Shown here: positions 10,297 through 57,911 of the stretch, in pieces
How the letters are laid out: each line of letters begins with the position of its first letter
Numbering within the stretch: position 1 is the first letter of the stretch
Source of the DNA: Bdellovibrionales bacterium
GTDB lineage: Bacteria; Bdellovibrionota; Bdellovibrionia; Bdellovibrionales; UBA1609
NCBI GenBank assembly: GCA_965203225.1
Contig: CBDBBW010000007.1
Location: forward strand, 423,574 to 487,573
Length of the DNA stretch: 64,000 bases
Direction of reading: 5' to 3'
The notes under the pieces: generated by a model
What the model saw: only the letters and a program-made list of their open reading frames with translations
What the model was told of the DNA's origin: nothing
Databases searched by the model: none
Position numbers and translations under genes: made by a program

Positions 10297-10829
10297 ATAT
10301 TCCCCCGCAGTTGGTTGTCTCTCGCCGGCTTGGTGATAGTTAGATGGTCAACCCATTGAAAAAGCCCCAATAAGGGAAAGGACAGAATCCATGTCATCAG
10401 CCCTCCTCCCAGCCAGGCAATAAATCCGTGAAAGTACACCGGACCATTCATCATCCGGGTTAAAACCCAAAGTAAAACCGGGAAAGAAAGCAAAGTGAGC
10501 GCACAGGCGATGCTGAAAAACATCCAACTGGTGTAATAAATTCTTTTAAATAATAGAAGCACCAGTAAAATCACGGCATTAAAAACCAAAAAATAGCCGG
10601 TTAATAAAGAGGAAGTGGAGGCCGTGTTAAAAGTGATAAAATACACTATAAAAACAGCTTCCACTGTTTGGCGGTAAAGCGCCCAGTAGATCAAACAGGG
10701 TATCCATAAATAAATAGGAATATTGTCAAAAAGGGAAGGCCATAAACTGTTTTGAATTATGGTAATCAATAAAAAAAGCGCTATCATGGTCGTATAATTT
10801 AAAATCGCCAGCTTGTAATTGATAAACAT
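10293..10829 (-). CDS. mreD: rod shape-determining protein MreD
   Basis: Small polytopic membrane protein between mreC and mrdA with a 4-nt overlap with mrdA. The call rests mainly on position and topology. Confidence 0.7.
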   Translation of the reverse strand: MFINYKLAILNYTTMIALFLLITIIQNSLWPSLFDNIPIYLWIPCLIYWALYRQTVEAVFIVYFITFNTASTSSLLTGYFLVFNAVILLVLLLFKRIYYTSWMFFSIACALTLLSFPVLLWVLTRMMNGPVYFHGFIAWLGGGLMTWILSFPLLGLFQWVDHLTITKPARDNQLRGNI

Positions 10830-10842
10830 TAAAATGATTCCT

Positions 10843-11661: not shown

Positions 11662-11793
11662 GATAGCCTCTTTATTCCTTATGGTTATTTATGAGATTAT
11701 ACACTTATATTGTTTGCTTTTTCCCTTTGTTCAAGATAAATTATCTCTTATCAACTCCGTATAAAAATTCACATCTTAAAAATACAAAGAATT

Positions 11794-12825
11794 ATGTTTG
11801 AGAAACTTAGAAAGCCGGTCCGAACAAAAAATATTGCCTATTATGTTATTTTTGGTCTTATATGCGTGGTTTTTGTGTTTATCGGGGTGCCGATGGGACA
11901 AATGTCCAGTATAAGCGGATCTGCTTTCATAGTGAATAATAAAATGATTTCCTGGTCAGAATATCAAAATTACCTTGAAATGGTAAGACAACAATCTCAA
12001 AAAGGGGATTTTGGATCGGATTTGGAAACTCAGCGTCAGGAACAACTGAAAAAGCAGGCTATTGATACTCTGCTGAATACGGAGCTAATAAATCAGGAGG
12101 TAGACCAGGTAGGGCTGACTCCTGTCGACAAAGAGGTGCAGGATAAAATTGTGAAGCTTCCTTTTTTTCAGGAAGAAGGCCGGTTTACGCATTCTAAATA
12201 TCGTGCTTTTTTGTCCGCTCGTCGGTTCTCCGCCGGTTATTTTGAAAACCTGATCAGAAAGGAAATACAAACCGCCCGGTTCCAAAATATGTTTAATGTG
12301 GCCGTACGTGTCTCAGAGGGGGAGAAAGAAAAAAGAAAATGGCTGGAGTCATTTAAAGCGCAGGTCAGCTATATTGAGTTTGGGTCTGATGAGCTAAAGC
12401 CGGAGGAGTCAAACAGCATCAACACGATCGTGCGGGAAGGGGACATGGCTTTGCTGGATCAGGTTGTTAGAGATAAAAAATGGAAATGGGAGCAAACGGA
12501 GGTTTTTAATTTACGGCGCGTTTCTTTGCCCGGTTTGGAATCTCATAAAATACTTTTTAATGAGGTATTAAATTATTTTCCTGAAACAGGGTTGATTAAA
12601 AAAACTGTCAATTTGCGTGATCGATTTTTTATATTAAAGGTGGATTCTTTTGTGCAAGCAGAAGAGCCAAATGAGCAAAAAGCTTTCCCTGTTTCGGATT
12701 ATTTTTTTACAAATATGATGTTGGCCCGGATGACTTTTTTATCTTGGGTTCGCTCCGCCCGGCTGTCAGCGAAATTACAATTCAATCCTCGTCTGCAAAC
12801 AAACCAGCCGGCGGAGTTGGAATAA
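11794..12825 (+). CDS. PpiD/SurA-N-like periplasmic chaperone (membrane-anchored)
   Basis: The N-terminus MFEKLRKPVRTKNIAYYVIFGLICVVFVFIG is typical of PpiD-type anchors. A SurA-N-like helical region follows. No clear parvulin domain was seen. Confidence 0.6.
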   Translation: MFEKLRKPVRTKNIAYYVIFGLICVVFVFIGVPMGQMSSISGSAFIVNNKMISWSEYQNYLEMVRQQSQKGDFGSDLETQRQEQLKKQAIDTLLNTELINQEVDQVGLTPVDKEVQDKIVKLPFFQEEGRFTHSKYRAFLSARRFSAGYFENLIRKEIQTARFQNMFNVAVRVSEGEKEKRKWLESFKAQVSYIEFGSDELKPEESNSINTIVREGDMALLDQVVRDKKWKWEQTEVFNLRRVSLPGLESHKILFNEVLNYFPETGLIKKTVNLRDRFFILKVDSFVQAEEPNEQKAFPVSDYFFTNMMLARMTFLSWVRSARLSAKLQFNPRLQTNQPAELE

Positions 12826-13075
12826 ATCTCTGTGTGAAGTAAATCCCTGTTGCCAATACTTTTTTTTTTAACGGGTTCAGACAGCAAGTTGGAATAAATC
12901 TCTGTGTGAAGTAAATCCCTGTTGCCAATACTTTTTTTTTTTAACGGGTTCAGACAGCAAGTTGGAATAAATCTCTGTGTGAAGTAAATCCCTGTTGCCA
13001 ATACTTTTTTTTTTTAACGGGTTCAGACAGCAAGTTGGAATAAATCTCTGTGTGAAGTAAATCCCTGTTACCTTG
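12816..13075. repeat. 72-73-bp tandem array (~3.6 copies) starting inside the last codons and stop of 11794..12825
   Basis: The unit gttggaataaatctctgtgtgaagtaaatccctgttgccaatacttttttttttaacgggttcagacagcaa starts at 12816, 12888, 12961 and 13034. Confidence 0.9.
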
Positions 13076-13515
13076 ATTCATCCTGTATAATGTGTCTTAT
13101 GTTCTATTCTATATAAAAAATTTCAATTGTTTTTGTGTGCCTTATTCCATCTTTTTTAAATCTGCCACAAATATTTCGAGTAAAAAATCTCAAAAAAAAC
13201 TAACACTAATGAAAAGAAAAGAATTCTCCTCACTGATACATGGAACAAACACGAAAATATTTATGAATTCTTCAATAAGTTCTATTTTTTTTTTGAAAGC
13301 AGAAGATACACTCATCAAATAATAAATAGATTTTTATAGCGACACAGATACTTTAGTCTTAAATCCTGAGTCTGGTAATAGTGAAAATTTTTCTTTCTTA
13401 CTGGATTATTAGCTTAAACCTTGAGTCTGTTTTTTTCTTTAATCTTATTCTTTGAATTGTTTTTTATTCAATCTATGTTTGTACTGAACCGATAAAAGCT
13501 ATTACAGGAGGTAAT

Positions 13516-14718
13516 ATGAGAAAGCTTGTTTTTTTATTGACGATATTTTTAATTGGATGTGACACTTCTGTTGGTTTTGACAGTTCACCTCCTTGGGTTG
13601 ATGCTCTTGCCTCTGAGGTGGGTGCAAATAAAAAGAAAAAAATAGATAATCCACGAGGTAAAAAAAGAGGTAAGGGTAAAAAAAGAGGCAAGAAGGTTAG
13701 GCGAACACAGACTATAGCGGATGTGGTTCAGCCCCGCCCCGCTCCTCCTCCTCCTATGACAGACCCGACACTGCCGAAACAACCGGACTTTGTTGTAACT
13801 TTAGAAGAAGCAGTGACTAAACCTAAAGTGGGAAAATATTCTCAGCCAACTCCGGTTCCTGCTCCGGTTCCTGCTCCGGTTCCTACTCCTACTCTGAATG
13901 TACATGATTCAAGTGCTTCATTGGATCGAGAGGCCGTTCGTCCTCAGCCTGTTCAACCACCTTCAGTTCCGGCGAAAGCGGATATTGTTTTTATCGTGGA
14001 TTCCTCTAATTCTATGAATACTTTTTTAAGAAAAGTTGGCACAACCTTTGCCGGGTTTATTCCCGCTTTGGAGCCATTGGATTGGCAGATTATGTTTACT
14101 AATGCAGACTATAGTTGGTTCAAAAAAGGGTACGCCATGAATCTGGAGAATGATGGCAAATTGTTGTGGAAGAAAAAAATAACAAAGGGCATGAAAAATG
14201 CTGAATCTATTTTCTTGGATACATTGAGATTACATAATGAATATGATGAATATCGTGAATATTATAGGGGTGGTAGTGTTGAAACAAGCCCTTGTATATT
14301 AGCCCCCGGTTGTCAAGGGTGGGATGAACAGCCTTTGAAAGCTTTACAATCCTCTTTTGTCGTAAATCGTTCATTTTTTCGCCCAGGTGCGGATGTAATA
14401 GCTATTATTTTTTCTGACAGTGATGAAGCCGCGGACATAAAACAACCTAAATCCAAAACAAAAGCACAGAATGTTGTTCAGGCTTTCCAAAAGCAATGGG
14501 GAGACGACAAAAGATTAATAACTTATGCGATTATTATGATTCCTGAAATTGATGAAGCTTGCAGAAGAAAATATGAGGGTTTCTGGAGAGGAGGCGAAGG
14601 TCTTTTTGGAAAAGAATTCCAAAAATTGGTTGAAATGACAGGAGGTGCAAGTTACAGTCTTTGTGACAGCGATTATACACCTTTAGCACAAAAAATTGTT
14701 TCTGATTTACAAAAATAA
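13516..14718 (+). CDS. lipoprotein with polybasic and Pro-rich linker plus vWA-like (MIDAS DSSNS) domain; paralogue family member 1
   Basis: AGGAGG RBS and lipobox LTIFLIGC. Linker segments are KKKKIDNPRGKKRGKGKKRGKKVRR and the PVPAPVPAPVPTP spacer. The domain motifs are DIVFIVDSSNSM, WQIMFTNADY, CILAPGCQGWDEQPLKAL, IIFSDSDE, YAIIMIPEIDEAC and TGGASYSLCDSDYTPLA. Confidence 0.85.
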   Translation: MRKLVFLLTIFLIGCDTSVGFDSSPPWVDALASEVGANKKKKIDNPRGKKRGKGKKRGKKVRRTQTIADVVQPRPAPPPPMTDPTLPKQPDFVVTLEEAVTKPKVGKYSQPTPVPAPVPAPVPTPTLNVHDSSASLDREAVRPQPVQPPSVPAKADIVFIVDSSNSMNTFLRKVGTTFAGFIPALEPLDWQIMFTNADYSWFKKGYAMNLENDGKLLWKKKITKGMKNAESIFLDTLRLHNEYDEYREYYRGGSVETSPCILAPGCQGWDEQPLKALQSSFVVNRSFFRPGADVIAIIFSDSDEAADIKQPKSKTKAQNVVQAFQKQWGDDKRLITYAIIMIPEIDEACRRKYEGFWRGGEGLFGKEFQKLVEMTGGASYSLCDSDYTPLAQKIVSDLQK

Positions 14719-43171: not shown

Positions 43172-43406
43172 AAATTACAGACCTTTTCTGTTTGTATCAC
43201 TTAAATTTCCCTTATCCGACGCTTTTTCATTCTTTGGTGAAAAAAAACCATGAAGAATTCAAGCGGGATCAGTATCGCTTAGCTTGTGTAATACTATAAC
43301 TTTATAGTTATTTTTTGCTGAAAACAAGATTATTTGTTATAAATAGTAATCTGTTGTATATTTGGCATGGCTATATAAACCTCGATTTTGTGTTGTGGGG
43401 GTAGTT

Positions 43407-43548
43407 GATTGGATTGCTGTAAATGGGTGTTGCAAATGCTGATCGAATTGCTGGGAATGGGTATTGCAAATGCTGATCGAATTGCTGTAAATAGATGTTC
43501 CAAATGTTGATTGGATTGCTGTAAATGGGTGTTGCAAATGCTGATTGG
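43407..43548. repeat. 34-bp tandem array, ~4 copies
   Basis: gatYgRattgctg recurs at 43407, 43441, 43475, 43509 and 43543. Confidence 0.9.
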
Positions 43549-43675
43549 TGAAAAATTTGTAAAAATAAAGCTTTGGTATTGTATAAAATGTCTGTTTTTT
43601 TAGAGTTTGGCTTGAGGGTATATATCGTAAAATGCTGGCAGATTTTTAGTTGATATATTGTTAAATCATTTCATT

Positions 43676-43752
43676 GGGGTGGTGGTCTAGTTGGTTAGGA
43701 CGCCGGCCTGTCACGCTGGAGATCGCGGGTTCGAGCCCCGTCCACCCCGCCA
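43676..43752 (+). tRNA. tRNA-Asp (anticodon GTC), CCA encoded
   Basis: Hand-folded cloverleaf. The acceptor is GGGGTGG/CCACCCC, the D arm GTCT/GGAC, and the anticodon stem CCGGC/GCTGG with loop CTGTCAC. The T arm is GCGGG-TTCGAGC-CCCGT, with discriminator G and 3' CCA. Confidence 0.9.
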
Positions 43753-44137: not shown

Positions 44138-44890
44138 ATGAACAAGACTCAAAGCTGGCAATGCCCTTATTGTAGTCATCATCAAGTACTTTTAGACACA
44201 GGTAATTATAGTGATAATTTAAAATCTACTACAACAGATATTGTTCAAACAAGTAAATATAGTCAAATAGGGCTTTTCACAACTAGTATTGCTTGTTTAA
44301 ACTCAGATTGCAAAAAGCTTACACTAAAAGTTGATTTAAAAAAGATAGATAGCTATGATCCATATTTGGCGGGGAAATCAATAGGACAATGGTCATTACT
44401 ACCTGATTCAATAGCTAAGCCACAGCCGGATTATATACCTGCACCTATTAGAAAGGACTATCAGGAAGCTTGCAAAATATCACATCTCAGTCCAAATGCT
44501 TCTGCCGTTTTATCCAGAAGATGTTTAGAAAGCATGATTAAACATTTCTGTGAAATAAAAGAAGCCTCTCTTTATCAATCCATAGAGAAACTAAAAAGCA
44601 AATTGAAAAATAATAAAGCTCCTAAAGGTGTTACAGAAGAAACAATAGAAGCTATTGACAGTATAAGAAGAATGGGACGCATAGGTGCACATATGAAAGA
44701 ACCGACAGGTATGTTGGTTGATATTGAACCTGAAGAGGCTGCTCTACTTGTTGAGCTTATAGAAATGTTATTTAAAGAGTGGTATATTGCCAGAAATGAA
44801 AGACAAGAAAGGTTAAACAAAATAAAAGAGACTACTATACAAAAAGAGCAAAAACGAAATTCTGGAGCAAAAAGCCAAAACTATGAATGA
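44138..44890 (+). CDS. DUF4145-domain protein with N-terminal zinc ribbon
   Basis: CPYCSHH...C at the N-terminus. The C-terminal IRKDYQEACKISHLSPNASAVLSRRCLESMIKHF...IRRMGRIGAH matches the DUF4145 pattern. There is an 8-nt overlap with the methyltransferase gene. Confidence 0.7.
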   Translation: MNKTQSWQCPYCSHHQVLLDTGNYSDNLKSTTTDIVQTSKYSQIGLFTTSIACLNSDCKKLTLKVDLKKIDSYDPYLAGKSIGQWSLLPDSIAKPQPDYIPAPIRKDYQEACKISHLSPNASAVLSRRCLESMIKHFCEIKEASLYQSIEKLKSKLKNNKAPKGVTEETIEAIDSIRRMGRIGAHMKEPTGMLVDIEPEEAALLVELIEMLFKEWYIARNERQERLNKIKETTIQKEQKRNSGAKSQNYE

Positions 44891-45929
44891 TTATAAAGAA
44901 AGAAAATATTTATCATCAATAGAAGCAGGAAAATACTTAGGTATTACTGTTCAAACTTTACATGGCTTGGTCAAACAGAAAAAAATCAAGAGTGTCATTG
45001 CTACCAGTGGACAAAAAAGGTTTAAACTACAAGACTTAAAAAATTATGAAAAAGGCAGGCTTAAAGTAAGAAAAGTAAGCCAAAAACGAACTGCAAAAGA
45101 AACTCTGTTACAAATTAACGATACTTCACATAAAATCTATATAAAAAATTCAATGAGCATGGATAAGTTGGAGGATAATTCTATTCATTTAATGGTGACC
45201 TCCCCTCCTTATTTTAATGCAAAGATGTATACAAAAAAGCCTGTAAAAGGGGATTTAGGAAATATCCATGATCTTGATGAATGGTTTGAGAAAATCGGAA
45301 TGGTTTGGAAAGAAACTTTCAGGGTGCTCCAATCGGGCAGAAAAGCTTTTATAAACATTATGAATCTGCCTATAAGAATTGAAAAAAGTTTTAAAACCTT
45401 AAATTTGGTTGGTAGAACCATAGAAACTATGGAAGAGATCGGATTTATTTTTAAAAGGGATATTATATGGCATAAAACAAATGGAGTAAAAGCCCACTTT
45501 GGAACTTATCCCTATCCAGGAGGTATTTTAATCAACAATATGCACGAATTTATTTTAGAATTTAACAAACCAGATAAAAAAGGCTTCAGTAAATATGGTC
45601 ATTTAACAAAAAAACAAAAAGAAATTTCAAAACTGGATAAAGACTTTTGGTTAAGTATCAAAAATACGGATGTATGGACAATGAAGCCGGAAAATAGTGG
45701 AGATAGTCGCTCCCACGTTGCTCCATTTCCCTATGAATTGCCTTATAAAATTATTAAAGCCTTTACTTATGTAGGGGAAACTGTGCTAGATCCTTTTGCA
45801 GGTAGTGGAACAACAACCAAGTCTGCCGCAGATTTAAAAAGAAATAGTGTGGGATATGAAATCGCTCCAGAAATCGCTGGAGAGGCTATCAATAGTTTAA
45901 AGAACTATCAAAACAGATTGTTTGTTTAA
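44883..45929 (+). CDS. HTH-fused DNA methyltransferase (beta-class N6A/N4C type)
   Basis: N-terminal HTH LSSIEAGKYLGITVQTLHGLVKQKKI. The catalytic motif IV TSPPYF precedes the SAM motif I LDPFAGSGTT (beta-class order). Confidence 0.85.
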   Translation: MNDYKERKYLSSIEAGKYLGITVQTLHGLVKQKKIKSVIATSGQKRFKLQDLKNYEKGRLKVRKVSQKRTAKETLLQINDTSHKIYIKNSMSMDKLEDNSIHLMVTSPPYFNAKMYTKKPVKGDLGNIHDLDEWFEKIGMVWKETFRVLQSGRKAFINIMNLPIRIEKSFKTLNLVGRTIETMEEIGFIFKRDIIWHKTNGVKAHFGTYPYPGGILINNMHEFILEFNKPDKKGFSKYGHLTKKQKEISKLDKDFWLSIKNTDVWTMKPENSGDSRSHVAPFPYELPYKIIKAFTYVGETVLDPFAGSGTTTKSAADLKRNSVGYEIAPEIAGEAINSLKNYQNRLFV

Positions 45930-45944
45930 GAAAAAGAAAGAATA

Positions 45945-47066
45945 ATGTCCGATACAAAGACAATATATGCCCAATCCAGTGATATTAAATCCAGAACTTA
46001 TTTGGAATATCGAAAAGATATGAAGCAAAAGGCTATTGCAGAGCTTGAAATTCTGCCTTGGCTAAAGGAACAAATTAAAAAATCAGATGAGGAGGTTAGC
46101 GTAGAAAAATATGGAGGTGACAAGTTTATATGGTTTTTGAGAAAGGGAGGAATTACAAGAGAACCTGATTTTATTGTTAAATACTCCAATAAAAAAACGG
46201 AGTATATAGAATTTCAATATGCAAAAAAAGAATTAAGAGCTTATGATTTTAAAATTTCCAAGATTACTCCAAAAGATAAAAAGCTAAAGAAAAGAGTTCC
46301 TAAAAAAGATACAAAAATCTTATATATCATCAAGCCAACTGGTGAATTTGCTATTTTAGAACCTTCTTGGATAGCTAAACATTCACAACAAACTGTCGCT
46401 CCTGCATGGGGAAATGCTCCTGTGTTTAGAGTGCTTAAAGAGAAATTTAAAAAAGTTTTGAAGAAAGATAAAAAATTAAAAACTGTTTGCAATACGATAG
46501 ATAAGAAAAACTATATCTTGGACTTTCAACATAAAACTATTGAAATAGAAAAAGAGAAAATTTCTTATTTACTCCAACAGGTTTTAGATGAAGAAAAAGC
46601 CTTAAAAATCATGCCTAAAACTTTGGACGGATTTTTCAAAGTTTGTTTTACACTCAGTCATCTTGAGAAGACACCTGCTAATGCCAGCCTATGGCTGATA
46701 TATTTGTTATCTTTTTTAAGTCAAAAACTCAACTCTTATAAGATATTTCAACTAGTTTACAGTTTGGATTTCCTTTATTCAAAAGTTGATTTAGAAAAGA
46801 ATGAGATAAATAAATTAGTTGAGGGAATAAACTTTCTTTATAAAAACTTACAAAAGTTCTCAAAAACTGACGGTTCTTTTCAATCAAATAAAACGATCGC
46901 TCCTTTAGAGGATACAAGATACTCTCTTTTTATAATAAATATCATTGAGGATTTAACTCAGGATATCTTATTTTACTATGGAAATGATTTTGATCTAAAA
47001 TCTATTAACAAGATATATCAGACTATTCCTCAAGTCGATGAAACTTTTGAGTTCATTAGAATTTGA
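45945..47066 (+). CDS. putative cognate restriction endonuclease (PD-(D/E)xK-like core)
   Basis: It lies immediately downstream of the MTase. The N-terminal E...EPDFIV-x12-EYIEFQYAKK resembles a PD...E.Q/K nuclease core. No family was recognised, so the call rests on position plus motif. Confidence 0.5.
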   Translation: MSDTKTIYAQSSDIKSRTYLEYRKDMKQKAIAELEILPWLKEQIKKSDEEVSVEKYGGDKFIWFLRKGGITREPDFIVKYSNKKTEYIEFQYAKKELRAYDFKISKITPKDKKLKKRVPKKDTKILYIIKPTGEFAILEPSWIAKHSQQTVAPAWGNAPVFRVLKEKFKKVLKKDKKLKTVCNTIDKKNYILDFQHKTIEIEKEKISYLLQQVLDEEKALKIMPKTLDGFFKVCFTLSHLEKTPANASLWLIYLLSFLSQKLNSYKIFQLVYSLDFLYSKVDLEKNEINKLVEGINFLYKNLQKFSKTDGSFQSNKTIAPLEDTRYSLFIINIIEDLTQDILFYYGNDFDLKSINKIYQTIPQVDETFEFIRI

Positions 47067-47079
47067 TACAAAAAATTGA

Positions 47080-47632
47080 ATAAAGAAGGTAATCATATCT
47101 TCATTTAAAATTAATTTTGATCGCTTTAAAGAGTTTTCTTCAAATGAAAGCAATATTTTATCAGATATAGTTGGTTTGTATTTCATAAAAATGGATAATA
47201 TTTTAATATCATACCCTTTTAAACAGTCGAAACTAATTTATATAGGAATGAGTGAAAAAAACTAATGGAATAGGAGTAAGATTATATGATCATTTCAATG
47301 GTCAATCTGGTAATGTGGGATTATTCAACTATATCAAAAGTATAGATGTCAAATTTACATATATAAACTTTGATATTTTAAAAGATTTTTGGAAGCTCTC
47401 AATAGAAAACTTGGAAAGTTATTTTATACTTGATTTTCTAAAGTATCATGGAGCGTACCCTATTTGTAATAATAAAACTGGATTTCCTGAGCTACCTAAA
47501 AAATACTTTAATATAAATTGGAGACGACACGCAGACGACATCAAAACAAAAACTATTGATTTTACAGGACTTTTTCAAGTAGCTGGAAATAGAATCAGCT
47601 GGATTTGGTCAGACGACACGCAGACGACATGA
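47080..47632 (+). pseudogene. GIY-YIG nuclease-like gene, start lost and frameshifted in an A7 run
   Basis: Own translation gives ...VGLYFIKMDNILISYPFKQSKLIYIGMSEKN*, continuing in the +1 frame (ORF 47252..47632) as TNGIGVRLYDHFNG...IENLESYFI...PICNN. Deleting one A of 47255-47261 restores the frame. No ATG/GTG/TTG lies upstream of the GLY motif. Confidence 0.6.
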
Positions 47633-48128
47633 CTGGTACAATAAATATCGGTAAAATGGCGGGGTAACTCTCACCCCTCTCATTGATTTTAGAGGGAATT
47701 TAACGGGATACTCCGGTTAGGAGAGGTTATCAGCAGTTGTCAGTGGTATAAAAAGGAGCAGATTTATTGGTTTATTGGTTTATTTTAGTGTTTTAAGAAC
47801 TCTTTTTCCTAACCCGTCCCCCCCCCTGCCACTGTTCTCTGTAAACCTTATAAACACTATAGTTTTTCAGAAAAAAATGTTTTTTAACGGGATTTTTTTA
47901 AAAGATTTTTCAAAACAACTTAAACTGCCAATGATTGATTAACTGTGTTTCCAAAACAGTTAGTCGTTTTTAAAGAGGGCAGAAAAAGTTTTTTCTCCCA
48001 CTTCATGATTCAAAAGAACTGCAGTCTTCTCATGGGATAAATCATCAATATTTTCTAAAAATGGAATCTTATAAGATAAATTGTCTTGAAAAATAGATTT
48101 AAAATAAAGTCAAAGAAATAAATTATCT

Positions 48129-51100
48129 TTACCAGCTTACAATATTAAGAAACCACATAGTACCTTCAATTTTATCGCCATTAGTAAAATAAACTCCACT
48201 GAAAACATGTCGTTTTCCTGTCATACTATCTTTTCCATAAAGACGCTTTTCACCACCGATAAGCCAAATCAAACATAAATTATCTTGATCTAACCAAGTA
48301 TTTAAGACATCTGTTTTAATAAGAGCATAAGAAGGATCTTTTGATTTAATACTTGGATTTTTGAAAATAGGAGTACCGTCATTATTTACCCAATATTCAA
48401 ACTGTCCGGGTAAATAATATAATTTAAGTTTATCAATCAAAATTTTAGTTGGTAAGTAGACTGAAATAGATTCATCTATAGAGTGATCTGCATTTCCACT
48501 TTCCCAACTGTATTCTCTGATTGGACATAGGTATTTAGTATTTGAGTCAATATTATACACTGATAAACTATTGAAATTATTAGCATATTCTTTATTACAA
48601 AACGGATACTCTTTTAGGAATCTATCTATTCTCCCTATGTTTACTGTATGAGGGTCACAAAAATCTTTATTTTTTAGTTGTGTATAAAAAGTGTCACGAT
48701 CTTTTTTAGGAATAAGTATAGCATTTATTCTAAACCAACACTCTGGTTTATAAAGTCCTTCTTCTTTTTTATTAGGATGTAATTCTTTTTGCTGAATTAC
48801 AAAACCATGAAGAACTGTCCATAAACTGTTATCTTTTGGTTCTCTTACCTGAAGAAGATTCTTAAAAGATAGAATAGTAGATTTTGACCTAAACCATTTT
48901 TCCTGTTGTTCAACATCTTCAGTAGTACATTCAAGAACATAAGGTTGCCACCACCATTCAGTGGAACTTGTTTCAAAATTAAGATCAGATTCTGTCTTTC
49001 TCAAATAAAAAGTTGGATCAATGTCTCTTATACTAAGTTGCCAAGGCCCTTGATATTCATTTTTATCATCATACCAATCGCCAATATAATGGACATTATC
49101 TGCTAAATGAGCTAATAATTTATGAAAAGCAATCCATTGATATTTTTTCCCAATTCTTTCTATAAGTTTTCCTTCTCTGTCCCTAGAACACATGAGTTTC
49201 TCAAATTTTCCAAACAACTCTTTTTTCCAACCCATTTCATATACCTGTTTACATACCCATCGTTTAGCCTGTTTACGACTAAAAGCAGCTGGTCTGTCAT
49301 TCATAAATTTATCATCAAATAACCATCTTTTCTCTTCTCTTTGTTTCTCATTAAGGGTTTCCATAAATTTATCTTTTTTTTCTGATGATTGACCATAATA
49401 CAAAGCTTTTTGTTGTTCACTTAATTTATCTACAAACTTTTTTTGTAGCTCTTTTCCAGTTTCAGGATGCTGTTTGGTCAAAGGAGTAGGTGAAAAAGAA
49501 TGAATACAGCTCATAGTATAAATTCCAAAATCTCCAGTAAATCCCATTAATGAGTAATGTACAGAACCATACTGCTTATCATCAACTAAAGCATCTATTT
49601 CTGAGTCCATGGGATTTTCAATGGGTACACTATTATATGGTGGACGAAAATTCTCTGGATTAATTTCACTAGAAAGCAATCCTTTATTATGTGTAAACTC
49701 TAAAATACATCGTGCATAATCTCTCAATAATATATGAGGCACAGGTTTTCCTTCCTTGAATATTTGCTCATAAGTTTTTTCTGCAATTCTTTTCATCAAA
49801 TTTTTGTCTTCTATATTCACAATTACACCATAGGTAATAGCATATAATCTTTCTAATACATAAAGATCATTCACTTTTAAAAAAGTATCCATTAACTCTA
49901 GTAAATGTTCTGGATGCTGTGATAGAATGATAATAGCTGACTTGGTTGCCTTATCTCTAACTTCCCTATATGAAGTTGTTGTAAGCCAAATCAATGTTAT
50001 TGCATAAAGTCTTGCACATTCAGCTTCAAGGTTACTTAAATTAGCAGAATAAGGCCAATCGATTAAGTTCTTTACAACTAATTTTTCATTATAATGATAA
50101 GAACAAGCTATATGAATAGACCAAAACTTATCTCTCTCATATAATTTTTGTTTAAAAAGTATTTTATGAAGAAAATCTGCATTCCATGGATGTTCAACTT
50201 CTGTAGATAAATTTAAAAGAATATCCAATGCAGGAGAAATAAAACTATTATTTGGAATTTTTTTTAGTAGTTCAAGGGTTCTATTAGTTAATGAGTCAGA
50301 AGAACGCTGTAAAATTGTATTAGTAAAAGAAATCTCTAAAAGCTCTTTCTTTTTTAGTGCTATTAAATACTGTTGATTCTTATCTATTTTTTTAATATAT
50401 AATCTTCTTAGAAAATTAAAGAGAGTGTTTATTTTAAGATAAGGTTTATGAAACTTCGTATTAATATCCCTCGTTTCTATGAGATCATATAATTCCATGT
50501 TAAAACACTTACCTATACAAATAGATAGCGCTTCAATAATTCCCACAAACAAATAAAATTTATTATCAATGAAAATATTTCCAATAAGAGTATCTTTTTT
50601 AAAATATAATTTTAAATTCTCGGATTTTAGAGGGTAATTTCTTTTAAATAAAACTTTAAAAATGTAATATTTGATTAGATTTACATTTTTTTTAAATTTC
50701 TTAGGTTTTCCTTTTATTTCTTTTTCAATCAAAGCCTCAGCAATAAAATAATCACTAAAACGCTCATAGGTAAAACGAATAATTGGACTATCTTTATAAA
50801 TATCTTCTGATAAAATTCCTTCATTTAAAAGATCATCAATTAACTCTTTTCCTTTTTCTCCATTGATACCAGATGATATTATTGTTCTTCTAGCTTCATC
50901 TATTGAAAGACCGTAAAGATTATTAGGAAATAATTTTAGAGCAAATAATTGTAGTGCCTGCAGAACTGTTTGTTTATCAAGTCTATATAGTTTTCTATTA
51001 CTGATGGTTTCTAAAATAGAATCTATATAAAATCTAAAAATATCTCTAATACCTCTTGACCCTTTTGGAAACTTATTTTCTCCTTTGATTTTAAGAGATT

Positions 51101-52685
51101 TACAACATATTTTTAAAAATAAAGGGTTAAAAAATTCTGGATTCATTATTGGAGTGCTTGGCACAAAAATACCTTGTTTTTCAAAATATTTATATACAGC
51201 TTTATGACCTGGGTCAGAAAACCCTATATGTTCTATTTCTACTACCAAATCTTTAATTTGAGGAGGTAAAAGATATTTAAGATAAGTGGAACGACAACTA
51301 AAAACAAAAGAAATATATGGATATTTTTTTAGCTCTATAATTAAACTTATAATATGATCTTTCCAAGACTCTTTGTGAGAGCCTTCATTAATAGCATCAA
51401 TAATAATCATTGTTCTTGTAGAATGAGCTTCTCCAAGTGCAGCTAAAGCTCCTAAAACCTCTTTATAAGAGTTACTATTTAAATCTAAAGAATCAGAAAT
51501 AAGTTTAAGAGGGTTATCTCCATTGTAATGTTGCCCTAAAAGAAATAGAGTTGGTAAATTTTCATCTAAGCGATTTAGGGTAATATCACATAGTAAATGT
51601 GATTTACCTACTCCAGCACCACCTGAGAGCAACATAGACTTTTTAGAAAAAGCCATCATGACTTCACTTGTTAAAAAAAGTGCTAACTCAGAATTGATAT
51701 TGCTGAATTCATTGAAATATCTTTTAATTTTCCTTTCAATTTCTGTTTTTGTAGGTTTAAATTCCGGTTTAATTTTTTGTTTTAAGTTATCAATAATTTC
51801 TTTTAACTGATTTGCATTTTCATACAAGAATTCTGCATTAATTACTTTCTTTAAAAGAATCTCTAAATTGAAAACAGAATCTTTTATAGGATTCCACCAT
51901 TCTTTTGTTAAGCTTTTATCTTCTTTATTGATAATATTTATCAAACTGCCTAACACTTTTAACCAATGGTTTTTAATAGAGCAAAATTTTAGATACCAAC
52001 TGGGGGTAAGACCTATACCTTCAAAATACTTTGAGATAGGGAGATCAATATTTAACTTTTGAGAAAATCTCTCGCCAAGTGATTGTTTAGACTTTTCTGT
52101 GATATCCTTAAGATGCTGAATTTGTAAAATAGGAGAGTTAAACCAATATAAGGCACGACCAGAGAAACGAGGGTCATCTCTGCTCAATATACTGAAAATT
52201 TCACTAGCTCCCCAAAATTCAAATTTAACATTCATACTCTTTGATTTTGCTATTTTTTTCCATTCTGCTATTTTTTTGTTCCATTTTTCTAACAGATCTT
52301 TTTTGTTTTCTTGCTTCCGATCTGTTCTATTTAATGGAAGACAAATATAGTACTTTTTCAAATTTGGATGTTTATTTAAAGCTGTTTTTACAGATTTAGA
52401 AATTTGTCGCCATTGCGGGTCGGTTATTGTATCTAAAAAGTATTTTGCCTGCCAAGCATGTTCCGAGTCATCTTTCAATTTCCAAAAGCACTCAATCCCA
52501 GCATCTCCGCCAGAACCTTCTTTTCTGATAAAAGATTCTGCACCTTCTGGACGAGATAATCGAGCAAGCTGGCAAATCAGTTCTTCAAAAGCATTGTTTT
52601 GACTGCCATTATGAGATCGGATTTTCTTAAAATCTATGTTGCTACCCATGAAATGAATTTTAAAAGAATCGTTTTTAACAATCAA
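48129..52685 (-). CDS. Mrr-like PD-(D/E)xK nuclease + STAND/NACHT-like P-loop NTPase + ~900-aa C-terminal region (Avs / bacterial NLR-like defence candidate)
   Basis: N-terminal nuclease-type motif FEELICQLA...GSGGDAGIEC-x13-WQAKYF. Walker A LLSGGAGVGKSHLL, Walker B MIIIDAINEG, then ISFVFSCRS and FTYERFSDYFIAEAL (a NACHT/WH-like arrangement). The long C-terminus is unassigned. The probable true start is the internal MGSNIDF. Confidence 0.7.
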   Translation of the reverse strand: MIVKNDSFKIHFMGSNIDFKKIRSHNGSQNNAFEELICQLARLSRPEGAESFIRKEGSGGDAGIECFWKLKDDSEHAWQAKYFLDTITDPQWRQISKSVKTALNKHPNLKKYYICLPLNRTDRKQENKKDLLEKWNKKIAEWKKIAKSKSMNVKFEFWGASEIFSILSRDDPRFSGRALYWFNSPILQIQHLKDITEKSKQSLGERFSQKLNIDLPISKYFEGIGLTPSWYLKFCSIKNHWLKVLGSLINIINKEDKSLTKEWWNPIKDSVFNLEILLKKVINAEFLYENANQLKEIIDNLKQKIKPEFKPTKTEIERKIKRYFNEFSNINSELALFLTSEVMMAFSKKSMLLSGGAGVGKSHLLCDITLNRLDENLPTLFLLGQHYNGDNPLKLISDSLDLNSNSYKEVLGALAALGEAHSTRTMIIIDAINEGSHKESWKDHIISLIIELKKYPYISFVFSCRSTYLKYLLPPQIKDLVVEIEHIGFSDPGHKAVYKYFEKQGIFVPSTPIMNPEFFNPLFLKICCKSLKIKGENKFPKGSRGIRDIFRFYIDSILETISNRKLYRLDKQTVLQALQLFALKLFPNNLYGLSIDEARRTIISSGINGEKGKELIDDLLNEGILSEDIYKDSPIIRFTYERFSDYFIAEALIEKEIKGKPKKFKKNVNLIKYYIFKVLFKRNYPLKSENLKLYFKKDTLIGNIFIDNKFYLFVGIIEALSICIGKCFNMELYDLIETRDINTKFHKPYLKINTLFNFLRRLYIKKIDKNQQYLIALKKKELLEISFTNTILQRSSDSLTNRTLELLKKIPNNSFISPALDILLNLSTEVEHPWNADFLHKILFKQKLYERDKFWSIHIACSYHYNEKLVVKNLIDWPYSANLSNLEAECARLYAITLIWLTTTSYREVRDKATKSAIIILSQHPEHLLELMDTFLKVNDLYVLERLYAITYGVIVNIEDKNLMKRIAEKTYEQIFKEGKPVPHILLRDYARCILEFTHNKGLLSSEINPENFRPPYNSVPIENPMDSEIDALVDDKQYGSVHYSLMGFTGDFGIYTMSCIHSFSPTPLTKQHPETGKELQKKFVDKLSEQQKALYYGQSSEKKDKFMETLNEKQREEKRWLFDDKFMNDRPAAFSRKQAKRWVCKQVYEMGWKKELFGKFEKLMCSRDREGKLIERIGKKYQWIAFHKLLAHLADNVHYIGDWYDDKNEYQGPWQLSIRDIDPTFYLRKTESDLNFETSSTEWWWQPYVLECTTEDVEQQEKWFRSKSTILSFKNLLQVREPKDNSLWTVLHGFVIQQKELHPNKKEEGLYKPECWFRINAILIPKKDRDTFYTQLKNKDFCDPHTVNIGRIDRFLKEYPFCNKEYANNFNSLSVYNIDSNTKYLCPIREYSWESGNADHSIDESISVYLPTKILIDKLKLYYLPGQFEYWVNNDGTPIFKNPSIKSKDPSYALIKTDVLNTWLDQDNLCLIWLIGGEKRLYGKDSMTGKRHVFSGVYFTNGDKIEGTMWFLNIVSW

Positions 52686-52980
52686 TTATAAAAAGTGTAC
52701 TTTCAAGAATTACTTTTTGTATATAGTAAGTCCCGCCGCCCCCATTTTCGAGCCAACAGTATATATGAGACCATTTTGTCCAAGGACATCCAATTTATAA
52801 AAGTCGTCTATAAAACCAGATTCAGTTTCTTCTACTATCTCTTGAAGCATGACTTATATATCTTCTTTGTAGTGAGACCAAGTGTTATCACTAGCTAAAG
52901 AAGTCTGAATAGCTTTATTTTCAAAGTATACTGTTTCATGATTTTAAAAAATCTCCTCTCACAAAAGGCACTCTTGAATA

Positions 52981-53353
52981 GCAATATCGCACAGAATCCA
53001 TTCAAATCTTTTCAAAAGAAATTGAAAAATTATTCAAGCCAAATTCAAATGCAACTATAACAGCAATTCCAAGTTCTAAACTAAAAGCACACCTTGAATA
53101 TGATAACCGATTTGAAGACTTATTTAAGGTGCTTTTAAAAACTCGTCCTCATTTGAATATTGAGTGGCCGGTTGAAATTCAAAAATTTATACACCCTGCT
53201 CACCAAAGAGGTTCTAGAAATCCAGAACATATAAAGAAAAACTACAGATGGAAAAGGTTTAAACACTCCTCTTTTGAAATAAATTCCTTCTTCCTATTTC
53301 ACATAGGGAATTTTTCCAAGAGCTATCCAATTACGGATAGTGTGAGGAGCTAA
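52981..53353 (+). pseudogene. startless gene remnant
   Basis: The frame is open after TAG 52978-52980 and has no start: QYRTESIQIFSKEIEKLFKPNSNATITAIPSSKLKAHLEYDNRFEDLF.... Its 3' end overlaps the opposite-strand HTH gene. Family not recognised. Confidence 0.25.
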
Positions 53354-53485
53354 CCCAAAGACAACCGCTAATTCCTCTACCGGTATTAAGTTGTCAAAGA
53401 ACTGATCTGAATTATCAGAACAGCTGGAACAACCAGCTTTTTTAAGCTTAAATCTTTTTGCTTTTTTTCCCCCAGTTTTTAACAT
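53294..53485 (-). CDS. excisionase/AlpA-type helix-turn-helix protein
   Basis: The C-terminal LIPVEELAVVFGLAPHTIRNWIALGKIPYVK matches the excisionase-family HTH pattern. 63 aa. Confidence 0.55.
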   Translation of the reverse strand: MLKTGGKKAKRFKLKKAGCSSCSDNSDQFFDNLIPVEELAVVFGLAPHTIRNWIALGKIPYVK

Positions 53486-53610
53486 TCTTATAAAAACTCC
53501 ATTTATGCCTTCAATAAACTTGCTTCTTATTTCTTATTTTTCTCCTTTCCATTTTTTATTTTCTTAATAAAATTTCAGTTCTTAAGCATTGCTTCTAAGA
53601 GATCGCATCT

Positions 53611-53916
53611 TCATTTCTTTTTTTTTGATTTAAAATACTGGATGATTTCCTTCTTGAAATTGAATACCCCAATAATTATAAGAAGACCTAAAGAAAACAG
53701 TGGATTAGATAAAATAATTTCCAAAAAACTGAAAAGTGTAAATAAAATAATGGAAATACAATTCAATACCACAAAACAGCCTAAAAGCTTTATACTAATT
53801 TGTTTGCTTGTGTCTTTTTCCGAAAAGCTTAAACTATAGTTTATCAACCATAAAACTTTTTTAACTGTGTAGTTTAGCATTTTTTTTATATTCGTCTTGT
53901 TATTTTTTTGTTTCAT
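53611..53916 (-). CDS. small membrane protein
   Basis: An AGGAGG RBS precedes the ATG (revcomp of tcctcctttatg). Two or three hydrophobic segments. No family recognised. Confidence 0.45.
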   Translation of the reverse strand: MKQKNNKTNIKKMLNYTVKKVLWLINYSLSFSEKDTSKQISIKLLGCFVVLNCISIILFTLFSFLEIILSNPLFSLGLLIIIGVFNFKKEIIQYFKSKKKK

Positions 53917-53935
53917 CTTTTCCTCCTTTATGTTT

Positions 53936-54453
53936 TTATTCTGCCTTTATGTAGAGAACTTTAAGCTCAAACATTTTATTCTTTTTAACTAATCGATTGT
54001 TGCCAACTGGAGTCCAGTGTTCTACAGCTTGACTTTTTTCCAACTGAAACAAATGCCACTATCCAAAAGAAACATAAGGCTTTATCTCTTCCGGTATGTC
54101 TTTTTTAGTCAGATAGTTTTTTCCTCCTGTGAGATACTCAATTCTTGAACCTTCATACATAAGACCAAATTCCTCTTCTAAAGACTTAAGCTTTTCTTCC
54201 CGCTATTCAGCTTTCTTTTCCTCATTAAAAACAACTAGACTTATAAGAGAGGTTATCAAACCAAAACTGGTTCCGTAAAAAAAGTATTCTTTGTTTTAGT
54301 TTAGCTTTGATTCAAACCATAACCTACCCTGCCAGCTATGCCTAAAGCTGTCATCCCATAGATTTTTTCACGATTAGATAACTTCAAATTCGAACAAGAA
54401 CTAGAGAAAAAAGTAAGAAAAACGGTTTGAAATAAAAAAATTCTTAATGACAT
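53936..54453 (-). pseudogene. decayed lipoprotein gene (multiple stops and frameshifts)
   Basis: AGGAGG RBS plus ATG at 54453-54451, giving MSLRIFLFQTVFLTFFSSSCSNLK...GYGLNQS*. Coding-like segments then continue in other frames (…EEEFGLMYEGSRIEYLTGGKNYL…HWTPVGNNRLVKKNKMFELKVLYIKAE*). Confidence 0.4.
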
Positions 54454-55095
54454 ATCACACCCTCCTTATTTTTGATTTCTTCTAATTGAGAGGACTTGTG
54501 TAATAATAAAGAATCTTTTTTTATAATCTCTTCTATTTGCTCATGTCCTTGAACAGGATTATCTAAAACCTCAAGGCATGCCCATTTCTCAATTCCATTT
54601 TTGCCCACTTTCCTTTTTTCTCCTCTTTTTGGACAGAGAAGCTTTTCTCCACATAACCCTTTATCATCTTCTTCCACTCTGTCCAGCATTCCCGTCAGAA
54701 CCTCTAAAACTTCCTCTTCTTCCTTCACTTCCAATACCAGAAACTTTTTTAATTTCCTCTAATTGAAAATCTAAAAGACTATAAGCCTTTAAATGAAAAG
54801 AGCAAGCTAAAATGAATATATCTCCTCCAGACTTTCCGTCTTCTCTTTTTTGAGCCTTTTGTCCTTTCAGAAAATTTTCAATGATAGAGTGCTTAGATAA
54901 AAACTCTGTTGCTATGACTGTTAAACTATGTTCGTTTGTTTGGATTTTTACCATATCCAAAATAACTTTTAAAAACCTCATAAACTCCTCTTTTGTTTTG
55001 GTGAAGGAGCATACGGAAAAAAAGAAAAAAGAAAAGAAAGAGACTGAAAGCCTCCTACTGCAGTGGGATTTTTCGCCAAAAATCCATACCACCAT
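54444..55095 (-). pseudogene. frameshifted ORF pair of unknown function
   Basis: ORFs 54664..55095 and 54444..54734 overlap by 71 nt in different frames and read as one interrupted product. It contains GGDIFILA, also seen in the remnant at about 61400. Confidence 0.35.
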
Positions 55096-55237
55096 GAGAT
55101 AACTGCAAAAAAATGCAGTTTTTCATCCCATCGCAATGGGATAAATCAACTAAAAAATCCCATAATGGGATAAGAGAACTAAAAATTTTTATTCAATTTT
55201 TAAATTGTGTCTCACAACAAATGTCTCAGTTTGAGAT

Positions 55238-55703
55238 ATGAAACAGAAAAAACTTATAAGAATACAACTTTTTATTTTTACACTATGGAAGGTGATGATT
55301 TTAAAAAAATATGTGAAACATCTAAGAGAAAATCTGAAAAATTAAAGAAAATTCATGATAAAATGAAAAGAAAAGATTGTTTTGCGTATGGGGTAATTGC
55401 AATTCGTAGATTGGATGCAAAGTCCAAAACAAAAATACTGGTACCCAAAATTTAAACAAAAAGGTGTTGATATGAGAATAGGGTTGGATATTGCAAGCAT
55501 TACAGCAAAAAAATTATGCTCTAAAATTGTATTAATATCCGGAGATACTGATATTATTCCTGCAATGAAAAATAGCAAGAAAAGAAGGTGTTCATGTATA
55601 TTGGCATAGCATGGATGATGGACGAACTGGATCAAATATAAACTTAGCTATGCACTCAGATGTAGTGATAACTAATAAACTACTCAAAACATTCAACAAG
55701 TAA
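55238..55703 (+). pseudogene. NYN/LabA-like domain gene broken by at least 3 frameshifts
   Basis: Joining frames gives ...KQKGVDMRIGLDIASITAKKLCSKIVLISGDTDIIPAMKNSKKEGVHVYWHSMDDGRTGSNINLAMHSDVVITNKLL, which is the NYN pattern (KGVD...D...vLvSGDsD..Pa....G..V). Confidence 0.55.
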
Positions 55704-56049
55704 GAAAAGAAGCTGTTTCTATCATCAGAAGCTTTGAGTTTAAATGAAATAAGAAATACTTAAGAAACTTAAAGATCTAAATAATAAATTCAATCTAATT
55801 TACAATCTCGCTGTGATTTACTTAAATAGAGTGGGAAACTGCGGGAAAATCTAGGAAAATTTTATACTTACTGCTCCTATCTTTAACAGTTTCACGGCTT
55901 AAAACTTCTTTTAATTCTTGTATCTAAATGATTTTAAAACGCACTTTATTAATATATTTAATCTGATATTGTTACAATTCAGCAAAATCTCACAACAAAC
56001 TTCATAAATGCCAGCGATTTTCTAATAAGATAGAAACAATGCCTAATTA

Positions 56050-57115
56050 TCAATGCTGAAAAAGAGAGGCAAAATATCGCAAACTATATTGTATAAGAGC
56101 TTTTCTTAGCTCTTCCTTTCCCCACTCTTTCTCTAGCTGTTTCAAAGAAGATAACTTCAAAATAGCAAAACCTAGCAAATCCGCTAGCATCTTCTTTTTT
56201 ACTCTCTTTTTTCCTATATGGCCTTCAATTATCTTCACAACCTTTCTCAGCTTTTCCGGATTCGCCCTAGCAAAACCTAGCAAATCCGCTAGCATCCTCT
56301 CTTCTACTCCCTTTTTTCCTATATAGCCTTCAATTATCTCCAGAACCTCTTTCAGCTTTTCCGGATTCGCCCTAGCAAAACCTAGCAAATCCGCTAGCAT
56401 CCTCTTTTCTACTCCCTTTTTTCCTATATAGCCTTCAATTATCTCCAGAACCTTTCTCAGCTTTTCCGGATTCGCCCTAGCAAAACCTAGCAAATCCGCT
56501 AGCATCCTCTCTTCTACTCCCTTTTTTCCTATATAGCCTTCAATTATCTCCAGAACCTCTTTCAGCTTTTCCGGATTCGCCCTAGCAAAACCTAGCAAAT
56601 CCGCTAGCATCCTCTCTTTTACTCCCTCTTCTCCTATACAACCCTCAACAATCTTCACAACTTCTCTTAAATCATCCAATGAAATTCTTATAAAAAAACC
56701 TCCCATTGATCTTCTTAATCTCTTTGTCACTCCCTCTTTCCCTAAATAACCTTCAAAAAAGGAAACGAGTTCTTTAAACTTTCCATAGTTTGAAACACCA
56801 AAATAGGACAGAGATTTTAACCTCTTTAGTGTATCTTCAACTCCTATTCGCTCCTCTAAATATTTTAATAAACTTCCTGTCTCTTCCGGCTTCCAACGCT
56901 TAAAAGATGACTTAACTTTCTCCTCCCATTTTTTATCGTATCCTGTAAGATTATACTCTTTCTCGTGAAGTCTTACATATTTTATAACATCTGCCTCCCG
57001 ATACAAATAAATCTTTACAGCTTGAGCTTAAACAAATCCCAGGAACACTCAAAAATAAAATAAAAAAGAAAACCTTAAACCAGGCATTTGAAAAACATCT
57101 TTTTAAAACAAACAT
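56050..57115 (-). CDS. tandem 35-residue helical-repeat protein; lipoprotein signal peptide is in a different frame (frameshift)
   Basis: There are about 5 near-identical 105-bp DNA units encoding RMLADLLGFARANPEKL(K/R)(E/K)VLEIIEGYIGKKGVE(E/K), plus degenerate flanking units. The ORF track starts at TTG 57006. ATG at 57115-57113 encodes MFVLKRCFSNAWFKVFFFILFLSVPGICLSSSC in the -1 register. Confidence 0.6.
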
Positions 57116-57239
57116 CTTTTCTCCTGCTTTGTTTAAAACATATAATCAAAACTAATTCTTATAAAGCTATTTCTATTTATAGGAAAATGTTTCCACTTAC
57201 TGTTCCTATCTTTAACAGTTTCACATCTTGAAACTTCTT

Positions 57240-57580
57240 TAAGAGAAAGTTTTGAAAAAAATACACAAGAGGTAAAAAGAGGGAAAGATTTTTTTAACAT
57301 ATCTGATCATTTAAGCGCAAGAGGAGATTTGCCTCGAGCAAAATGGTGGCTGGAAAAAGCGGCTAAACAAGATTTTGCTCTGGCTCAGTATAAATTAGCT
57401 AGGATGTATTCTAAGGGAGAAGGAGTGGAGCAAGATCTACATCGAGCAAGAGAGTGGTATGAAAGAGCGGCTAAACAAGATTTTGCTCTGGCTAAAACAA
57501 TCTTGGATAAGGTGTTTAAGAAAAAAGAGAAGAAAAATAAATCCTTCTTAAAAAAATGCTTAAATATATTCTTAGATTGA
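57240..57580 (+). pseudogene. 5'-truncated Sel1-repeat paralogue (linker plus 2 Sel1 units)
   Basis: LRESFEKNTQEVKRGKDFFNISDHLSARGDLPRAKWWLEKAAKQDFALAQYKLARMY... is collinear with residues about 260 onward of 57905..60556 and with 61450..62352. Confidence 0.6.
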
Positions 57581-57911
57581 AAAAGTTTTTTTCAGTTTAT
57601 ATTTCCTGTATCTTAAAAGTTACTTTGGAAAGAGAAACAAATAACACATAAAAGAAGCTGTTGAAACTATCCTGTCTGACAAATATATTTTTAACTTTGG
57701 CTTTCTCTAAAAGACGCAGTAAAAAAAGAAATAAGAGAGCAGTTAAGGTCTTACTGCTTTTTAAGCTTTGGAAAAGAATATACAAAAGAAATCATTTAAA
57801 GTTTAAACAGAGGTGTGTAATTTTTATTCATAATTTTACAATTATCTGGAATGATTTAGCAAATTATGGTAAAAAAACCATAGTTTGAATAAGAATCGGA
57901 GATAATGATGA
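57559..57911. repeat. 353-bp 5' cassette (intergenic region + RBS + ATGATG), copy 1
   Basis: Same length as 62356-62708 with only a handful of mismatches. A partial third copy at 63081-63233 carries an internal deletion. Confidence 0.9.

Follow-up and report, generated by a model that had tools for sequence, protein, structure and literature searches.

The subject of this analysis is a single large gene in a window of 64,000 nucleotides from contig CBDBBW010000007.1 of an uncultured Bdellovibrionota bacterium; judging by its sequence, the gene encodes an Avs2 (AVAST type 2) antiviral protein. As listed, the open reading frame (ORF) of this gene occupies positions 48129..52685 on the minus strand, stop codon included, and encodes 1518 amino acids (aa) from a TTG codon, as reported in an earlier note that was made from the nucleotide letters alone. 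The true start is probably the ATG at 52649, which would yield a protein of 1506 aa (likely coding sequence 48129-52649, minus strand), because 60 homologues start with the pattern M..(I/L)DF.KIR.H.GS, the first residue of which lines up with Met13 in the 1518-aa ORF, and the PADLOC profile matches to the ORF begin at residues 13-17 in the same numbering. Throughout, residue numbers refer to the 1506-aa form unless the 1518-aa numbering is indicated; the residue ranges of the alignments with EcAvs2 are in the 1518-aa numbering. Every motif that the note had quoted is found in the translation (FEELICQLA, GGDAGIEC, WQAKYF, GGAGVGKS, MIIIDAINEG, FVFSCRS and FTYERFSDYFIAEAL); only the spacer between GGDAGIEC and WQAKYF had been miscounted, at 13 residues instead of the actual 11.

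The protein matches the PADLOC Avs2 model PDLC02164 over its entire length with 1400.9 bits (E = 0), and five further PADLOC Avs2 models score E <= 1e-197, so the check that had been proposed with this resource came out in favour of the Avs family. When searched separately, the N-terminal 190 aa and the C-terminal 823 aa each match PDLC02164 as well, covering profile positions 3-185 and 1072-1494 of 1504, respectively. The solved structure of EcAvs2 (PDB 9o4e) aligns with the protein in four segments within residues 196-1508, with E 3.2e-120. A search of 5.8 billion proteins retrieved 972 homologues; coverage of the query reaches 100% for those 1461-1565 aa in length, and several, with 40-43% identity and 72-99% query coverage, are named by NCBI ‘AVAST type 2 anti-phage system protein Avs2’. 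The G+C content of the gene is 29%, and in such DNA, a 4.5-kb open frame would be very unlikely to persist without selection. This long open frame, together with a match at E = 0 to a family that has been curated, shows that the ORF has not arisen by chance but is a real and intact gene. On these sequence comparisons, we identify it as a full-length, intact and previously unannotated member of Avs2, in keeping with the assignment to Avs made in the note.

The predicted N-terminal effector (residues 1-175; 52125..52649, minus strand), delineated by an AlphaFold model, Foldseek searches and residue conservation, contains the motifs GGDAGIE (52491-52511) and WQAKYF (52437-52454; both on the minus strand). 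The model, built on a 26-sequence alignment, has a mean predicted local distance difference test score (pLDDT) of 83.6 and a predicted template modelling score (pTM) of 0.80, and its core displays the order alpha-beta-beta-beta-alpha-beta (helix 17-31, strands 37-42, 54-58 and 63-68, helix 77-93, and strand 97-103). The best Foldseek match in the PDB is to the N-terminal nuclease end of the EcAvs4 chains of 8dgf, with a probability of 1.00, followed by SfsA, EcoO109I, Card1 and NucS/EndoMS, all of which are PD-(D/E)xK nucleases. Five residues of this domain, D49, E53, E63, Q67 and K69, are invariant in all 35 aligned homologues, the set to which all conservation counts given here refer. D49 and E53 stand before strand 54-58, and Q67-A68-K69 lie at the end of strand 63-68; the candidate catalytic residues would be D49, E53 or E63, Q67 and K69. 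In position, K69 corresponds to the catalytic K71 of KpAvs2, the N-terminus of which is an Mrr-family endonuclease and in which the K71A mutation abolishes defence (PMC11564622). Fold and motif together support the prediction of a nuclease effector, to be described as Mrr-like by fold and not as a member of Pfam Mrr_cat. The Mrr/PD-(D/E)xK-like N-terminus postulated in the note is thus upheld by the fold and the invariant residues, but it extends over ~175 aa in the AlphaFold model, not over ~130 aa.

The effector is followed by a helical linker with approximate boundaries (residues ~176-330; 51660..52124, minus strand), which aligns with EcAvs2 from residue 171 on, and by the STAND NTPase module (residues ~331-640; 50730..51659, minus strand), delineated by alignment with the EcAvs2 ATPase; this alignment includes GKSHLL and IDAINEG. 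The module contains an invariant Walker A motif, GGAGVGKS, with K349 (51600-51623), an invariant Walker B motif, IIIDAINEG, with D418 and E422 (51381-51407), and the sequence FTYERFSDYF (50745-50774; all on the minus strand). K349, S350, D418, E422 and R453, the latter within FSCRS, are identical in 35/35 homologues. In the alignment, K349 falls on the Walker A lysine of EcAvs2, where the K348A mutant loses defence. The same loss is caused by the Walker A mutation K337A in KpAvs2 (PMC11564622).

The ~900 residues downstream of the NTPase, in which no motif had been recognized, correspond to the known Avs2 sensor, that is, a helical, TPR-type domain (residues ~641-1094; 49368..50729) and a beta-rich C-terminal domain (residues 1095-1506; 48132..49367; both on the minus strand), delineated by the alignment with EcAvs2 and, for the C-terminal domain, with the PADLOC Avs2 profile too. 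Residues 819-1098 align with EcAvs2 749-1029 (E 1.4e-43), and residues 1107-1508 with EcAvs2 1068-1476, at E 2.1e-27 in the full-length search and at 5.6e-28 when the C-terminal 579 aa were searched alone. The earlier note found this part of the protein unlike obvious TPR repeats; the equivalent region of EcAvs2 is described as a TPR-type helical domain joined to a beta-rich C-terminal sensor (PMC13601566). In the AlphaFold model of residues 1095-1506, the beta-rich part is confident and the first 135 residues are of low confidence, so that the outcome of the Foldseek search of the C-terminus is carried by the beta-rich part alone. The only significant matches are the terminase-bound SeAvs3 chains of 8dgc (E 4.3e-6, probability 1.00), in agreement with the report that this type of C-terminal sensor is common to Avs2 and Avs3 (PMC13601566). 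In view of the alignment and the structural match, the suggestion that the sensor might be a new variant is not supported. We also mapped the nine published EcAvs2 residues that contact the terminase or the bridging ATP onto the protein and found five of them retained, namely, D1040 (EcAvs2 D981; 35/35 homologues), R1156 (R1130), R1158 (R1132), E1383 (E1362; 35/35) and E1467 (E1444; 34/35).

The full-length homology to Avs2, the intact motifs, the nuclease fold, the Avs2/Avs3-type sensor and the variable, defence-rich genomic context without a conserved partner, to which we return below, all point to a stand-alone Avs2 antiviral STAND NTPase with an Mrr-like PD-(D/E)xK effector, that is, a protein with the architecture of KpAvs2; we put the probability of this interpretation at about 85%. 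The single-gene arrangement of effector, STAND NTPase and sensor that had been proposed from the sequence thus stands, and can be narrowed down to Avs2 on the strength of PADLOC, NCBIfam and the alignment with 9o4e. By analogy with the characterised members of the family, the helical and C-terminal sensor domains would most likely bind the ATPase domain of the large terminase of a phage during infection, and this binding would let the ATP-bound NTPase modules form a tetramer. The tetramer would gather the N-terminal nuclease domains and thereby activate them, and non-specific degradation of DNA would then kill or arrest the cell before phage progeny are released, resulting in abortive infection.

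Several observations weigh against this interpretation and have to be considered together. The NCBIfam Avs2 model NF041813 matches residues 202-1116 only, with 880.3 bits, and does not reach its equivalog cut-off of 1000 bits; the shortfall concerns this one model and arises from its effector and C-terminal parts, whereas the core is not affected, and it may explain why an identical protein carries no name in any source. In Pfam, the whole protein yields only weak NACHT and AAA matches, the NACHT match (PF05729) scoring 18.1 bits, under the gathering cut-off of 26.7, and a Pfam search by itself would have made the gene look novel. Of the NACHT/STAND assignment made in the note, the STAND part is retained, given the alignment with EcAvs2 and the invariant Walker motifs; at this Pfam score, a NACHT domain is not demonstrated, and ‘Avs2-type STAND NTPase’ is the better description of the module. 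For the N-terminal 214 aa, there is no match to any Pfam family at E <= 0.1, Mrr_cat included, and a profile of 26 N-terminal homologues produced chance matches only against PDB sequences; the sole weak sequence link of the N-terminus is to PADLOC LmuA (E 1.8e-5). The fold was therefore tested by structure prediction and Foldseek, where the match to 8dgf is modest (TM-score 0.55, normalised by the query; E 2.4e-4).

In the sensor, four of the nine EcAvs2 contact residues differ (T1128 is replaced by C1154, W1266 by E1297, E1364 by N1386, and E1462 by V1482), and two of those that are kept, R1156 and R1158, are only partly conserved in the family (12/35 and 22/35 homologues, respectively). The helical sensor contains a private insertion of 35 residues (731-765), and the linker that precedes the C-terminal sensor is shorter, after residue 1086; the insertion and the shortened linker are ordinary indels in variable regions, not signs of a new sensor type. 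Furthermore, we infer from EcAvs2, KpAvs2 and SeAvs3 what triggers the protein and that it oligomerises, cleaves DNA and defends the cell against phages. KpAvs2 can be triggered by proteins other than terminases and needs Avap2 against some phages (PMC11564622), and hence neither the trigger nor full autonomy is certain in the case of the Avs2 analysed here.

These differences bring up the possibility that the natural trigger of this Avs2 is not the large terminase but another phage protein, comparable to Ksap1 and Ksap2 or to vs.8, that would be recognized in the same pocket, mainly by the C-terminal sensor. Ksap1 and Ksap2 activate not only KpAvs2 but EcAvs2 as well, co-expression of EcAvs2 with vs.8 is toxic, and the replaced contacts and the private insertion in the helical sensor fit such an alternative. 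However, each Avs2 tested so far responds to terminases too, the known alternative triggers are confined to particular coliphage groups, and the most conserved residues of the pocket are kept, with D1040 and E1383 invariant and E1467 present in all but one of the 35 homologues; we consider a non-terminase trigger unlikely. A related and quite unlikely scenario, suggested by the private insertion, the shortened linker and the four missing contact residues, is that this copy, which belongs to a clade from small-genome Bdellovibrionota metagenome-assembled genomes (MAGs; 56-71% identity), has shifted its specificity, either to a non-terminase trigger or to the terminases of Bdellovibrionota phages. 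To our knowledge, phages infecting predatory or host-associated Bdellovibrionota are almost unstudied.

The genomic context of the relatives is compatible with a stand-alone Avs2 in a defence setting. In a scan of genome contigs, a single-protein query found no relatives and an alignment-based query found 558, distributed across many bacterial phyla and archaea; Avs2 relatives are present on 80 plasmid records and hardly occur in phage records. Among the named Avs2 relatives, the nearest comes from a Bdellovibrionales MAG (57% identity). Eight homologous loci lack a tRNA, and thus, the locus is not syntenic. Among 110 proteins encoded in the flanks of 12 homologous loci, there are strong matches to type II and type IIG restriction enzymes, PD-T4-6, PDC-S05, PDC-S34, Mza and AbiEi, as well as matches to ResIII, AIPR, Z1 and nSTAND3; metabolic genes are interspersed among them. 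The full-length relative nearest to this Avs2 (P0004, 66% identical, on a MAG contig of 2.0 Mb; locus L081 1-24464) sits in a dense defence island with CBASS (SMODS, bacterial HORMA and AAA), ApeA-HEPN, NERD, HEPN_RES, an HTH/M78 pair and transposase fragments. The expectation that homologues would be found near defence genes in other genomes was confirmed in this qualitative sense; the context lends qualitative support and is not a formal enrichment figure.

The same comparison bears on the prospect that the gene has nothing to do with phage defence and encodes a STAND/AAA ATPase with a housekeeping or regulatory role, for which one could cite the faint NACHT and AAA hits obtained with Pfam alone. 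This is hardly conceivable in view of the full-length Avs2 match at E = 0 and the match to a solved Avs2 structure, the position next to a restriction-modification cassette in an island of low G+C content, the lack of synteny and the presence of the relatives among defence genes. At the sequence level, a housekeeping role is refuted by the PADLOC Avs2 match, the 9o4e alignment and the P0004 defence island.

Somewhat separately, the Avs2 homologue of Anaerotaenia torta (L015 9995-14611) is represented by two separate ORFs (9995-12025 and 12134-14611), which could reflect either a frameshifted pseudogene or an assembly error.

No Pfam family is represented in more than three of the 110 flank proteins of the 12 loci, and therefore, there is no conserved partner gene. 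This is pertinent to the possibility that the protein, instead of being a true single-gene system, requires an accessory partner that has escaped recognition, as KpAvs2, which is encoded in a three-gene operon, requires Avap2 against SECphi18. Small unannotated ORFs flank the gene, for example, one of 101 aa at 53611-53916 on the minus strand, and could be candidates for such a role. However, the locus contains no radical-SAM gene and no recurrent neighbour, no ORF of at least 60 aa on the same strand lies within ~600 nucleotides of either end of the gene, and EcAvs2 functions alone; dependence on a partner appears distinctly improbable, and we favour autonomy of this Avs2.

The gene is located in a region of low G+C content (~31% from 43.8 to 57.9 kb, vs ~40% to the left), which is bounded on the left by a tRNA-Asp(GTC) gene (43676..43752, plus strand). 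The left 43.6 kb of the window are chromosomal housekeeping DNA, with genes for PBP2, RadA, FumC, adenosylhomocysteinase, methionine aminopeptidase and oligoribonuclease. RadA shows 77% identity with its counterpart in an Oligoflexia MAG and 54-56% with sequences from Bdellovibrio and Bdellovibrionales, which points to an Oligoflexia- or Bdellovibrionales-like host within the Bdellovibrionota. No direct repeat of the end of the tRNA-Asp gene was found in the 43-62 kb interval, and no integrase-family Pfam match was detected in the island ORFs and stretches scanned (the six-frame scan left out 47067-48128 and 57007-57904). Of the tRNA-linked island described in the note, then, the adjacency to the tRNA gene and the drop in G+C content were corroborated, but no repeat of the tRNA end and, in the stretches scanned, no integrase match came with them.

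Upstream of the gene lies an AT-rich stretch of 3.4 kb (52686-56050) with no ORF above 143 aa, in which six-frame Pfam searches detected two sub-threshold fragments only, of NYN (~55409-55603, plus strand) and HTH_17 (53294-53485, minus strand). This stretch may consist of decayed genes; nothing marks them as defence genes, contrary to the many decayed defence-type genes that the note had seen in the vicinity. Such a neighbour raises the question of whether the Avs2 gene, too, has lost its function and survives only as an open frame, without expression or activity, in an island that was acquired horizontally and is now decaying. Along the same lines, no Shine-Dalgarno-like sequence was found before either candidate start (the TTG or the ATG at 52649), and a promoter and terminator scan returned 33 promoter-like sites, with 32.6 expected from shuffled sequence, that is, no excess. 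However, the frame of 1506 codons is uninterrupted at this low G+C content, the protein has the length of its homologues, and all residues of the nuclease, the Walker A and B motifs and the sensor that are invariant in 35/35 homologues are present; what decay looks like in this family is illustrated by the L015 homologue, which is truly split in two ORFs. Hence we deem a relic very unlikely and retain the reading of an intact Avs2.

On the other side of the Avs2 gene, and separate from it, there is a cassette of three genes (44138..47066, plus strand). The first encodes a DUF4145 protein similar to PD-T7-4 (44138-44890; PADLOC PD-T7-4, 2e-10), the second, a protein combining an HTH domain with an N6/N4 DNA methylase (44883-45929; N6_N4_Mtase; PADLOC MTase_II 7e-59), and the third, a 373-aa candidate restriction enzyme identified by gene neighbourhood (45945-47066; all on the plus strand). 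The 3' end of the DUF4145 gene overlaps the methylase start by 8 nucleotides, which suggests that the three genes form one cassette. The 373-aa protein shows no sequence match in Pfam, PADLOC, NCBIfam or the PDB; more than 650 homologues of similar length, none with a name other than ‘hypothetical’, were found in Bacteria and Archaea, and most of the homologues listed are 367-387 aa long. Homologues are encoded downstream of an N6/N4 methylase and on the same strand in an Elusimicrobia bacterium, where the two genes are adjacent, and in an Altiarchaeales archaeon, with one small gene in between. A copy with 89% identity is encoded on the same contig as P0004, the Avs2 relative described above. 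We infer restriction activity from this association and propose the 373-aa protein as a candidate for an unannotated family of type II restriction enzymes; with the methylase and the putative restriction enzyme adjoining, it was reasonable to describe the Avs2 gene as lying next to a restriction-modification operon.

The remainder of the region is rich in repeats. Just upstream of the tRNA-Asp gene, four tandem 34-nucleotide repeat units (43406-43575) overlap a 66-aa ORF on the minus strand. To the right of the AT-rich stretch, a 318-aa ORF (56050-57006, minus strand) consists largely of five tandem repeats of 105 nucleotides (35 aa), with identity to the reference copy of 83-100% in four copies and of 63% in the remaining one; only weak, scattered Pfam matches were found in this ORF. 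It is followed by a gene for an 883-aa protein (57905-60556, plus strand) with a trypsin-like peptidase domain and 15 Sel1 repeats, encoded by 108-nucleotide repeat units, and truncated paralogous copies of this gene are present at 57329-57580, 61450-62352 and 62702-63097, with DNA identity of 82-92%. Further to the right, a 104-aa ORF (60877-61191, minus strand) faintly resembles the C-terminal end of N6_N4_Mtase (E 0.009), and a 61-nucleotide repeat, 82% identical, is found at 54806-54866 and 61408-61468; this ORF and the repeat may be remnants of duplicated or decayed genes.

What is new here is an unannotated Avs2 with an Mrr-like nuclease, which places the family in uncultured Bdellovibrionota, in a small island together with a restriction-modification cassette, and the realization that this effector subtype escapes the equivalog cut-off of NCBI. 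For homologues from E. coli, Klebsiella and Vibrio, it is already established what triggers the family, what its structure is and how it acts, and this copy, therefore, opens no new question and matters little beyond annotation. The neighbouring 373-aa protein, as a widespread unnamed partner of N6/N4 methylases in Bacteria and Archaea, may be a slightly better lead.

Among the known systems, SeAvs3 (8dgc) and EcAvs4 (8dgf) represent Avs families other than Avs2 and show no detectable similarity to the protein analysed here at the sensitivity of a PDB sequence search at E <= 1; the likeness is structural. SeAvs3 provides the only significant fold match to the C-terminal domain, whereas Avs3 proteins contain a Cap4-type nuclease and a different TPR domain; EcAvs4 is the best structural match to the N-terminal model, and its family senses the portal protein. 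The resemblance to EcAvs2 (9o4e; PMC13601566) is far more extensive: the linker, the NTPase and the helical and C-terminal sensors are homologous, and the Walker motifs and five of the nine contact residues are shared. Unlike the protein analysed here, EcAvs2 has a different, uncharacterised N-terminal effector domain, with which residues 1-195 do not align; the other distinctions are the four altered contact residues, the private 35-aa insertion and the shorter linker between the helical and C-terminal sensors. The closest counterpart in architecture, compared by its published description, is KpAvs2 (PMC11564622), which degrades DNA non-specifically and acts by abortive infection (PMC11564622). 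KpAvs2 comes from an enterobacterium and not from an uncultured Bdellovibrionota bacterium, and its operon holds Avap1 (radical SAM) and Avap2, neighbours that have no equivalent at this locus. The two proteins nevertheless have the same order of domains, in which an Mrr-family or Mrr-like endonuclease is followed by a STAND NTPase and this by a C-terminal sensor of the Avs2 type, and their Walker A lysines, K337 in KpAvs2 and K349 here, nearly coincide in position.

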